From the NCBI RefSeq assembly GCF_013315695.1, contig NZ_CP054353.1: a DNA stretch of 64,000 bases, one strand, 5' to 3'. Positions 13,616 to 45,928 of the stretch are shown here, piece after piece. How positions within the stretch are numbered: the first letter of the stretch is position 1; each line of letters opens with the position of its first letter. The notes beneath the pieces were generated by a model. The model searched no databases. It was not told the origin of the DNA and worked only from the letters and a program-made list of their open reading frames with translations. This DNA comes from Escherichia coli (GTDB lineage: Bacteria; Pseudomonadota; Gammaproteobacteria; Enterobacterales; Enterobacteriaceae). A program made the translations under genes and the position numbers.

Positions 13616-13720
13616 CTCAGGCTCCTTAAAAAAAGAGGCTAATGTTACCAGTTAAGATGCGCACTGAAAAACGGTTCTCTGTTAGACTTCAGAGAAACTC
13701 TCTACATTATGGCACTTGCA

Positions 13721-15061
13721 ATGAAAGTAATCTCTCAAGTTGAAGCGCAGCGCAAGATTCTGGAAGAAGCAGTTTCCACTGCGCTGGAGTTGGCCTCAGG
13801 CAAATCGGACGGTGCGGAAGTTGCCGTCAGCAAGACCACCGGCATTAGCGTAAGCACGCGTTATGGTGAAGTGGAGAATGTTGAATTCAATAGCGATGGC
13901 GCGCTGGGGATCACTGTTTATCACCAGAACCGCAAAGGTAGCGCATCATCCACCGATTTAAGCCCGCAGGCCATTGCCCGTACTGTACAGGCGGCGCTGG
14001 ATATTGCCCGTTATACCTCGCCAGATCCCTGTGCCGGCGTGGCAGACAAAGAGCTGCTGGCCTTTGACGCACCAGATCTCGACTTGTTCCACCCTGCGGA
14101 AGTTTCCCCGGATGAAGCCATTGAACTGGCGGCCCGCGCAGAACAGGCGGCATTGCAGGCGGACAAACGCATCACCAATACCGAAGGTGGCAGCTTTAAC
14201 AGCCACTACGGTGTCAAAGTTTTTGGCAACAGCCACGGCATGTTGCAGGGTTACTGCTCAACGCGTCATTCGCTCTCCAGCTGTGTAATTGCCGAAGAAA
14301 ATGGCGATATGGAGCGTGATTACGCCTACACCATTGGCCGCGCGATGAGCGATCTGCAAACGCCAGAGTGGGTCGGGGCCGACTGTGCTCGCCGTACTTT
14401 ATCGCGCCTGTCACCGCGTAAACTCTCCACCATGAAAGCGCCGGTCATTTTTGCCAATGAAGTGGCAACCGGGCTTTTTGGCCATCTGGTGGGGGCGATA
14501 GCGGGTGGCTCGGTTTACCGTAAATCTACCTTTCTGCTGGATTCGCTGGGTAAACAAATTCTGCCGGACTGGCTGACCATTGAAGAGCATCCGCATCTGC
14601 TGAAAGGGCTGGCGTCGACGCCATTCGACAGCGAAGGTGTGCGCACCGAGCGTCGCGATATTATTAAAGATGGCATCCTGACTCAGTGGCTGCTGACCAG
14701 CTACTCGGCGCGGAAACTGGGGCTGAAAAGCACCGGACATGCGGGCGGTATTCACAACTGGCGGATTGCCGGACAAGGGCTAAGCTTCGAACAAATGCTC
14801 AAAGAGATGGGCACCGGGCTGGTGGTGACGGAGCTGATGGGCCAGGGCGTGAGTGCCATTACCGGTGATTATTCCCGTGGTGCAGCGGGCTTCTGGGTAG
14901 AGAATGGCGAAATTCAGTATCCCGTTAGTGAAATCACCATCGCAGGTAATTTAAAAGATATGTGGCGCAATATTGTCACCGTCGGTAACGATATTGAAAC
15001 ACGCAGTAATATACAGTGTGGTTCTGTGCTGTTGCCGGAGATGAAAATCGCCGGGCAGTAA
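13721..15061 (+). CDS. pmbA: Metalloprotease PmbA (TldE), 446 aa
   Basis: Sequence recognised; start taken at [12 protein letters not shown] (ORF track begins 4 codons upstream). Confidence 0.92.
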
Positions 15062-15240
15062 AAAACTGGCGCGACCTGCCGCGCTATAAACTAAAAAATT
15101 ACACAAAATCATTCGCACTGCATCGAGACGGAAAGTGAATGAGGGCCGGGGAGCGTACTCGCAGTACGTGACCCGGGCGAATGAGCGTAGCCGTCGATGA
15201 GGCAGTGTGAAGGATGAAGTGTAAATAAAAAAGGAAGTGA

Positions 15241-15630
<390 letters not shown>

Positions 15631-16149: not shown

Positions 16150-16290
<141 letters not shown>

Positions 16291-40002: not shown

Positions 40003-41818
<1,816 letters not shown>

Positions 41819-44308: not shown

Positions 44309-44398
44309 TAGCAAAGTGTGCTTCGTTCATTCCTGAAAAATAATTAAAATTCAATATATTGCAGTGGGGTGGGCATGATAAGACGCGCCAGCGTCGCA

Positions 44399-45928
44399 TC
44401 AGGCAAAGACAAATCTCGCCTGACTTACCTTCTTCTCCCCCCCCAGCAAACTCCCCAACATCCCGCGTACAATCTGATTCGTCACCTGGCGAGCGGCGCT
44501 TTTGGCCATTGTTTGCACCACACCATCTTTCTTCCCGCCGCGTGGTCCGGTAGTGCCGAACAAAATATCCTTCAATCCACCAAGAATGCCGTCATCCACC
44601 GCTACCTCTTTCCCTTTCGCGGGGGGATTATTTTGCTGCTCGGTACTGGCCTGAAAGCCTTTTTGCAACATCTCATAGGCGGATTCCCGGTCCACCTCAT
44701 CCTCATATTTGCCATACACCGGAGAGTGATTAATCAAGCCATTACGCTCATCTTCCGTCACCGGTCCCATCCGCGAACAAGGCGCAATCACCATCGCCCG
44801 TTCCACCACAGAAGGGCTTCCTTTCGCATCCAGAAAAGAGATCAACGCCTCGCCGGTGCCCAGTTTCTGAATCGCCTTTTCGGTATCAAATGCCGGATTG
44901 ACCCGCATGGTTTGCGCCGCAGCTTTTACCGCTTTCTGATCTTTGGGCGTAAAAGTCCGCAAAGCGTGTTGAACGCGATTACCGAGCTGGCCGAGCACGT
45001 TATCCGGAATATCGGACGGATTTTGCGAAACGAACCAGACGCCCACGCCTTTTGAGCGAATAAGCCTTATCACCTGCTCAATCTTATCCAGCAGTACCTG
45101 CGGTGCATCGTTAAACAGCAGATGTGCCTCGTCGAAGAAAAACACCAGTTTTGGTTTCTCCAGATCGCCCGCTTCCGGCAATTGTTCATACAACTCCGAG
45201 AGCATCCACAACAGGCTGGCGGCATACAGTTTCGGCATCTGATAAAGCTTCTCGGCGCTGAGGATATTGATAACGCCTTTACCGTTGGCATCGGTGCGCA
45301 TCCAGTCTTTGATATCCAGCATCGGCTCACCAAAGAAGTGTGCTGCGCCTTGCTGTTCCAGCGACAACAGCCCGCGCTGGATGGCACCAACCGATGCGCT
45401 ACTGATATTTCCGTACTGATTCTGGAAAGATTTGGCGTTATCGCCGATGTATTGGGTAATCGCCCGCAAATCTTTAAAGTCGAGCAGTAACAGCCCCTGA
45501 TCGTCAGCAATGCGGAAGATGATATTCAGCACGCCAGATTGCACATCGTTGAGATTCAACAGCCGCGCCAGCAACAGCGGCCCCAGATCCGAAACCGTCG
45601 CCCGCACCGGATGGCCTTTCTCGCCAAAGATATCCCACACCACCACCGGATTGGCATGCGGTTGCCAGTCATTGACGCCGATATTTTTAAGCCTTGTGAG
45701 CAGTTTTTCCGACGCCGTTCCTGCCTGCGCGATACCGGTCAGATCGCCTTTCACATCAGCCATAAACACCGGCACGCCGATTTCCGACAATGACTCTGCC
45801 AGTTTTTGCAGCGTAACGGTTTTACCCGTCCCCGTTGCGCCAGTAATCAGCCCGTGACGGTTAGCCATTCCCGGCAGTAAAAACAGTTCTGTGTCCGGCG
45901 TGCGGGCAATTAACAGGGGTTCGCTCAT
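44399..45928 (-). CDS. yjgR: Uncharacterised ATPase YjgR (DUF853), about 509 aa
   Basis: Walker A (GATGTGKT) and Walker B (FFFDEAH); start at [11 protein letters not shown] is uncertain. Confidence 0.85.

Follow-up and report, generated by a model that had tools for sequence, protein, structure and literature searches.

Enterobacterial repetitive intergenic consensus (ERIC) elements, also known as IRU or RU-1, are non-autonomous repeats whose presence/absence variation and RNA-level compensatory evolution in Escherichia coli have already been described. They have reportedly been known since 1990-91, through the work of Sharples and Lloyd in 1990 and of Hulton, Higgins, and Sharp in 1991, and are said to have been treated again by Wilson and Sharp in 2006. 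The published accounts characterize ERIC as an imperfect palindrome of the MITE type, found in enterobacteria, about 127 bp long, with short terminal inverted repeats and a terminal TA (PMC2229807 Table 1; PMC3184786; PMC10969869). A DNA motif is not known for these elements (PMC2229807 Table 1). According to the passages of these reviews that summarize De Gregorio et al. 2005, ERICs of Yersinia are cotranscribed with their flanking genes and exert orientation-dependent, RNase E-linked effects on mRNA stability (PMC2229807, PMC3184786, PMC10969869).

Here, we analyzed a palindrome in the 182-nt spacer between pmbA and cybC, both on the plus strand, within a 64,000-nt stretch of E. coli DNA, to which we refer as the window. 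On the 3' side of cybC lie nrdG and then nrdD, both on the minus strand. We consider it roughly 90% probable that the spacer carries an ERIC copy at 15100-15223, an old insertion relative to an ERIC-free allele, which is transcribed and constitutes a generic structured-RNA module. The palindrome is the apex of this ordinary, already known ERIC/IRU element and not a new signal. The features on which the argument draws are collected in Table 1.

Table 1. Positions of the ERIC element, its parts, and neighboring features in the window
Feature	Position	Strand	Remark
pmbA (tldE), upstream gene	13709..15061	+	stop codon 38 nt before ERIC
G+C-rich hairpin GCGCGACCTGCCGCGC	15069..15084		8 nt past pmbA stop, outside ERIC; T-run on minus strand only
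Complete ERIC/IRU element	15100..15223	+ (as pmbA, cybC)	124 bp; single imperfect palindrome, TACAC...GTGTA
Left terminal arm	15100..15124	+	pairs with 15199-15223; near-invariant TACACAAAATCATTC among copies
Left GAATGAG	15137..15143	+	part of ERIC left arm; family consensus GAATGAA/GAATGAG
GGCCGGGG	15144..15151		
Apical nested hairpin	15146..15176	+	outer CCGGG/CCCGG; inner GCGUACU/AGUACGU; loop CGC
AG	15152..15153		
CGTACT	15154..15159		
Loop CGC	15160..15162		
AGTACG	15163..15168		
TGA	15169..15171		
CCCGGGC	15172..15178		
Right GAATGAG	15179..15185	+	specific to pmbA-cybC copy
Right terminal arm	15199..15223	+	carries family-conserved TGAAGGATGAAGTGTA
cybC Shine-Dalgarno AAGGAAG	15231..15237	+	7 nt after ERIC, outside ERIC hairpin
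cybC (cytochrome b562), downstream gene	15244..15630	+	intact 128-aa precursor
REP sites in window	16190, 40003, 40101, 40197, 44369		consensus match

The assignment to ERIC/IRU follows from full-length similarity, from the primer sequences in the cores of paralogous copies, and from copy number. In sensitive blastn searches with 15095-15230 as the query, genomes that lack the pmbA-cybC copy yielded the copies at queA-acpH, puuR-puuC, and rhlB-gppA, which align end to end at 70 to 77% identity over 91 to 96% of the query. Each of these matches runs from query position 6 (15100) to somewhere within 15223-15229, and the ends TACACAAAATCATTC...TGAAGGATGAAGTGTA are common to the aligned copies. 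The cores of the three paralogues contain the ERIC1R (as its reverse complement) and ERIC2 primer sequences (PMC3696847) almost exactly. With a typical ERIC copy as the query, 5425 of 5426 complete E. coli genomes gave matches, at a median of 10 places each and at most 16; the diverged pmbA-cybC copy, used as 15095-15230, recovers a median of 3. By nhmmer, the latter is the sole ERIC in the 64-kb window.

The core of the pmbA-cybC copy, aligned in register with the ERIC primer consensus, is only about 64% identical to it, and ERIC1R does not match anywhere in this copy even when three mismatches are allowed. The copy is thus a diverged ERIC, to which ERIC-PCR primers would anneal poorly. Its differences from the primer sites are mostly paired and compensatory: relative to the family core, CGTAC/GTACG replaces CTTAC/GTAAG and GCCGGG/CCCGGG replaces CCCCAG/CTGGGG, so that the stem of the apex is kept. 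The family identity holds: the similarity spans the whole element and not the core alone, and the three paralogous copies are themselves ERICs. The element is unannotated in the MG1655 RefSeq record, and readers therefore keep rediscovering its core as an odd palindrome; furthermore, our literature search retrieved no paper containing both "enterobacterial repetitive intergenic consensus" and cybC.

One such rediscovery is the preliminary description of this locus, which saw only the middle of the larger palindrome; it got the kind of element partly right and the family wrong. The string that it quoted is present where it was placed, apart from an AG (15152-15153) that was left out. The inner hairpin is indeed perfect, with 6 bp, or 7 bp counting the closing G·U. 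Of the outer stem, five perfect pairs hold (CCGGG at 15146-15150 with CCCGG at 15172-15176), but the quoted 7- to 8-mers do not match perfectly. The palindrome itself is real, and a 76-nt stretch folds at -35.1 kcal/mol (z = -4.9), far better than chance; the limits given for it, 15136-15187, are nonetheless too narrow, as pairing extends out to 15100 and 15223. The terminal arms form an inverted repeat of 26 nt (I1) that is 77% complementary, and the arms of the element were found as inverted repeats I1, I2 (the apical hairpin), and I5. The terminal repeats TACAC/GTGTA include the terminal TA. Outside them, the TA of the two sides does not form a clean duplication, and the mismatch between the left flank and that of the empty allele prevents a clean TA target duplication from being demonstrated.

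The direct repeat GAATGAG that was described as flanking the palindrome also exists, but at chance level and without conservation. At least one 7-mer direct repeat occurs in 84% of dinucleotide-preserving shuffles of 15060-15250, the same interval contains a second one, GAGCGTA, and neither the E. albertii orthologue nor the paralogous copies have the GAATGAG pair. The flanking repeats are coincidental, without a role, and are not a target-site duplication. We had considered GAATGAG as the target-site duplication of a 36-bp mini-insert, a candidate that is ruled out by the true indel, which measures 128 bp and has its right junction at 15223/15224.

Folding points to the plus-strand RNA as the form in which the element is maintained. 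The interval 15098-15225 folds as one continuous bulged hairpin of -63.8 kcal/mol on the plus strand (z = -9.0; 0 of 200 shuffles were as good), and the minus strand reaches -44.7 kcal/mol (z = -5.3). In seven of eight ERIC copies the plus strand is the more stable one, with four to nine G·U pairs on the plus strand and none or one on the minus strand; the rhlB-gppA copy has decayed to -25.9 kcal/mol. RNAalifold, applied to six sequences from four loci, predicted the same long hairpin, and among the paralogues 15 of 42 pairs show double compensatory changes. The orthologues form a small sample of five (the window, K-12, E. coli E69, Escherichia sp. E1V33, and E. albertii), in which nine stem pairs vary: seven are kept via G·U or U·G on the plus strand, two break, and none shows a double change. 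If roughly one quarter to one third of random single substitutions within a pair keep wobble pairing, the binomial probability of seven pair-preserving changes in nine is about 0.01, a hand estimate on this small sample. Because these substitutions keep pairing via G·U on the sense strand only, the RNA hairpin appears to be the constrained form, and the data indicate that constraint probably acts on the plus-strand RNA rather than on the DNA. Selection on RNA is not the only source of compensatory changes in quasi-palindromes, as mutation templated by the hairpin can produce them too. In folds that include its flanks, the ERIC hairpin stays an independent domain, with the Shine-Dalgarno sequence of cybC outside it.

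The presence of the element varies among E. coli genomes. Of 5426 complete genomes, 5424 were matched by a 221-nt query that spans the spacer; the match was full length, corresponding to an ERIC-filled site, in 3884 of the 5426 (72%), and in the remaining genomes it came in two pieces spanning 93 nt instead of 221. This empty allele, carried by about 28% of E. coli genomes, is 128 bp shorter in the alignment, leaves a spacer of 54 nt, and joins the filled allele on the right exactly after 15223. With about 28% of genomes lacking it, the copy is dispensable. At the same time, it is old, since E. albertii and two divergent Escherichia lineages, E. coli E69 and Escherichia sp. E1V33, carry it at this very position. 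The palindrome is thus conserved outside the source strain, both within E. coli (72% of genomes) and in other species of the genus, so that the lack of conservation named in the preliminary description as a refutation is not seen. Among the orthologues, identity to the window copy is 90 to 97% for the ERIC versus 88 to 96% for flanking coding DNA, and so is similar or higher; for E. albertii, the ERIC is 90% identical (12 differences in 124 nt), and the flanking coding DNA is 91% and 88% identical.

Loci from other species were collected with a degenerate cybC pattern on species-representative genomes, which gave only five loci and hence a thin sampling of other genera. In Citrobacter amalonaticus, the site has no ERIC, and the Citrobacter spacer (GCGCCAAAACAATAAAAAAGAGGAAG) is nearer to the empty E. 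coli allele (GCGCCAAATCTTCATAATAAAAAAGGAAG) than to the filled allele minus its ERIC. The empty allele therefore looks ancestral rather than like the product of a recent deletion, and filled and empty alleles look to have coexisted, or to have been exchanged, for a long time. A deletion between TAAAAAA repeats had been considered as the origin of the short allele and is ruled out, as its left flank reads GCGCCAAATCTTCATAA versus GCGCTATAAACTAAAAAAT in the filled allele and is closer to that of Citrobacter. Furthermore, several substitutions and indels separate the 15 nt just left of the ERIC (TATAAACTAAAAAAT) from the corresponding part of the empty allele (CAAATCTTCATAA), with flanking genes that can be up to 100% identical. 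Either the insertion site would have diverged far more than its surroundings, or the alleles would have been swapped by very short recombination tracts. Divergence of the flanking genes was also tried as a marker of the allele and was uninformative: in strain FAH, the empty allele is accompanied by a cybC with 100% identity to the window's. That the flanking genes do not separate the alleles is as expected with recombination.

Several observations concern the surroundings of the element. The G+C-rich hairpin GCGCGACCTGCCGCGC, 15 nt upstream of the ERIC, is kept in Citrobacter as well as in alleles without ERIC. With AAAAAA just before it on the plus strand, it scores as an intrinsic terminator of the minus strand, which is predicted to halt antisense transcription entering pmbA from the cybC side. 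On the right, the bases just 3' of the ERIC are AAATAAAAAAGG, with the A/U-rich stretch AAAUAAAAAA at 15224-15232. K-12 strains lack 26 bp (GTGAGCAATGCGTAAAAGCCTGTTAG; window 15237-15262) that include the last Shine-Dalgarno base and the ATG of cybC, and it is because of this deletion that cybC is a pseudogene in K-12. The junction of the K-12 deletion, AAGGAACTATTCTTGCA, is exactly the sigma-54 binding site "IS52" that has been reported at cybC in K-12 (PMC4591121); it is not contiguous in the window, and the sigma-54 site therefore appears to have been created by the K-12 deletion. The 396-bp contig NZ_AEJF01000297.1, assigned to Caballeronia mineralivorans, contains the pmbA-ERIC-cybC spacer of E. 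coli, complete with the two substitutions specific to K-12 and the 26-bp K-12 deletion; almost certainly, DNA of E. coli K-12 has contaminated this Burkholderiales assembly.

At two other ERIC loci, those at acpH and gppA, the conserved right ERIC arm (GAAGGATGAAGTGTA) places AGGA 8 to 10 nt before the annotated downstream ATG, which overlaps or directly follows the end of the ERIC. This arrangement raises the possibility that ERIC may supply the ribosome-binding site at these two genes, which the hairpin would then mask. The orientation of the ERIC relative to the downstream gene is identical at all four loci examined.

How the element should be read depends on several alternatives. A strong hairpin between two codirectional genes might be a rho-independent terminator of pmbA or an attenuator of cybC, but there is no U-run: the stems are followed by GAAUGAG and AAAUAAAAAA and the whole element by AAATAAAAAAGG, so that the preliminary description was correct in finding no U-tract, whether after the apical hairpin or after the entire element. 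As a terminator scan of 14900-15400 likewise reported no site on the plus strand, we regard this function as very unlikely. The dyad symmetry close to the cybC start, together with a core that is an unusual G+C-rich variant, would suit a palindromic protein operator controlling cybC specifically, in line with the protein-binding site that was also proposed for the palindrome. Against such a locus-specific operator speaks that many unrelated loci have a palindrome of this architecture; in addition, cybC is intact, and its ribosome-binding site unchanged, in the ERIC-free allele, our scan found no promoter-like site near the ERIC, and the family has no known DNA motif (PMC2229807 Table 1). The proposal of a protein-binding site is thus not supported, and an operator of this kind appears highly improbable. 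The description of the palindrome as an unusual REP-like unit came closest, in that it is part of a dispersed intergenic palindromic repeat, but this repeat is ERIC/IRU and not REP, and it measures 124 bp and not 52 bp. A unit of the REP/BIME type that stabilizes the 3' end of the upstream mRNA, or binds gyrase or IHF, would also be an intergenic G+C-rich palindrome after a gene end; nevertheless, the REP consensus is absent from 15060-15250, and the 124-bp unit has ERIC termini. The consensus found five sites in the window versus none expected by chance. Membership in the REP family is refuted, which leaves a REP/BIME-type function with next to no credibility, and an exonuclease barrier resembling that of REP is possible for any stable hairpin. 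As for the REPs themselves, the one at 16190-16225 lies between nrdG and nrdD, those at 40003-40232 are three units in a BIME-like cluster with a spacing of about 97 nt, and that at 44369-44404 is on the minus strand.

A weightier alternative is that the copy is a neutral or selfish relic, an immobile MITE remnant without function at this locus, which owes the persistence of its hairpin to a palindromic origin and to templated (quasi-palindrome) correction and not to selection on RNA. This reading stays reasonable because 28% of E. coli genomes do without the ERIC, their flanking genes being not obviously disrupted, and it is consistent with the decayed rhlB-gppA copy (-25.9 kcal/mol) and with the complete lack of double compensatory changes among orthologues. 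However, templated correction at the DNA level is strand symmetric and predicts neither the strand-specific wobble that keeps seven of the nine varying pairs nor the greater stability of the sense strand. Furthermore, the copy has been retained since before the split of E. coli and E. albertii at 90% identity and is no more diverged than the flanking coding DNA. On balance, we hold a functionless relic to be possible but somewhat unlikely, and return to the transcribed structured-RNA module.

If the ERIC has a role at all, it is most likely that of a structured RNA stability or processing module in the pmbA-cybC transcript, a proposal modeled on the effects of Yersinia ERICs recounted in the reviews. 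The RNA processing signal suggested in the preliminary description would be in keeping with those effects. Since the spacer of the empty allele is only 54 nt long and contains no recognizable promoter, cybC is probably transcribed at least partly together with pmbA, which would make the ERIC part of the RNA. In this scenario, the element would be transcribed within a pmbA-cybC read-through transcript or in a 5' leader of cybC and would fold as a single long bulged hairpin. As a generic structured-RNA module, this hairpin could act as a barrier to 3' exonucleases for the pmbA mRNA and/or as a processing or stability determinant beside the A/U-rich spacer that precedes the cybC ribosome-binding site. 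The hairpin might mark a cleavage within the A/U-rich 15224-15232, or it might leave the cybC message with a structured 5' end, and the net effect would be to uncouple the levels of the pmbA and cybC messages. A paper on RNase III targets that we checked makes no mention of ERIC, pmbA, cybC, gppA, or puuC.

It is also conceivable, if rather doubtful, that the ERIC has been co-opted, either to serve cybC as a regulatory RNA leader or to uncouple pmbA from cybC. What speaks for this idea is that the copy has been kept since before the E. coli/E. albertii split, that pairing is preserved on the sense strand only, and that the apex has been remodeled to be G+C rich. If co-option were true, the split into 72% filled and 28% empty sites would represent a long-lived and possibly selected expression polymorphism, not drift, with an empty allele that resembles the outgroup and has flanks up to 100% identical to those of filled ones.

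As a discovery, the element carries little weight, with ERIC, its variation, and its compensatory evolution already known. The filled/empty polymorphism directly upstream of cybC nevertheless constitutes a natural allele pair for the effect of an ERIC on the stability or translation of a neighboring message, and the experiments that we found on such effects of ERIC hairpins were mainly in Yersinia.

Among known systems, the REP/BIME units of E. coli share with this locus an intergenic palindromic repeat able to form an RNA hairpin after a gene, but they belong to an unrelated sequence family and have units of 35 to 40 bp. In Rfam, no family was matched at threshold, and the only match was RF02818 V_AS5 (Vibrio RNA AS5), at 25.7 to 44.8 bits versus a gathering score of 96; the pmbA-cybC copy scored 25.7 bits (E = 0.003), and the puuR-puuC copy had an E value of 9e-8. 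Positions 1-129 of the V_AS5 model align end to end with E. coli ERIC copies in the same long-hairpin architecture, but scores so far below the gathering score mark ERIC as related to this family and not as a member of it. The alignment spans 15097-15221 of the window, and the queA-acpH, puuR-puuC, and rhlB-gppA copies align likewise. V_AS5 itself looks like an ERIC-type repeat of Vibrio rather than a dedicated antisense RNA gene.

The closest relatives remain the ERIC/IRU elements as a family, with which the pmbA-cybC copy shares its length (124 versus about 127 bp), the imperfect palindrome, the terminal arms TACACAAAATCATTC ... TGAAGGATGAAGTGTA with the terminal TA, an intergenic position between codirectional genes, many dispersed copies, presence/absence variation, and compensatory changes that keep the hairpin. 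It differs in a more G+C-rich core, GCCGGGGAGCGTAC...GTACGTGACCCGGG versus the typical CCCCAGGAGCTTAC...GTAAGTGACTGGGG, and in a left flank that is several changes away from the empty allele. Among ERICs with a tested effect on mRNA, those of Yersinia reportedly act when ribosomes open the hairpin of an ERIC close to the stop codon and thereby unmask an RNase E site. At our locus, 38 nt and a further hairpin separate the element from the pmbA stop codon, and this ribosome-dependent unmasking may therefore not apply. In other respects, the pmbA-cybC copy resembles the Yersinia elements in its family, its cotranscribable neighbors, its defined orientation, and a long hairpin followed by single-stranded A/U-rich sequence.
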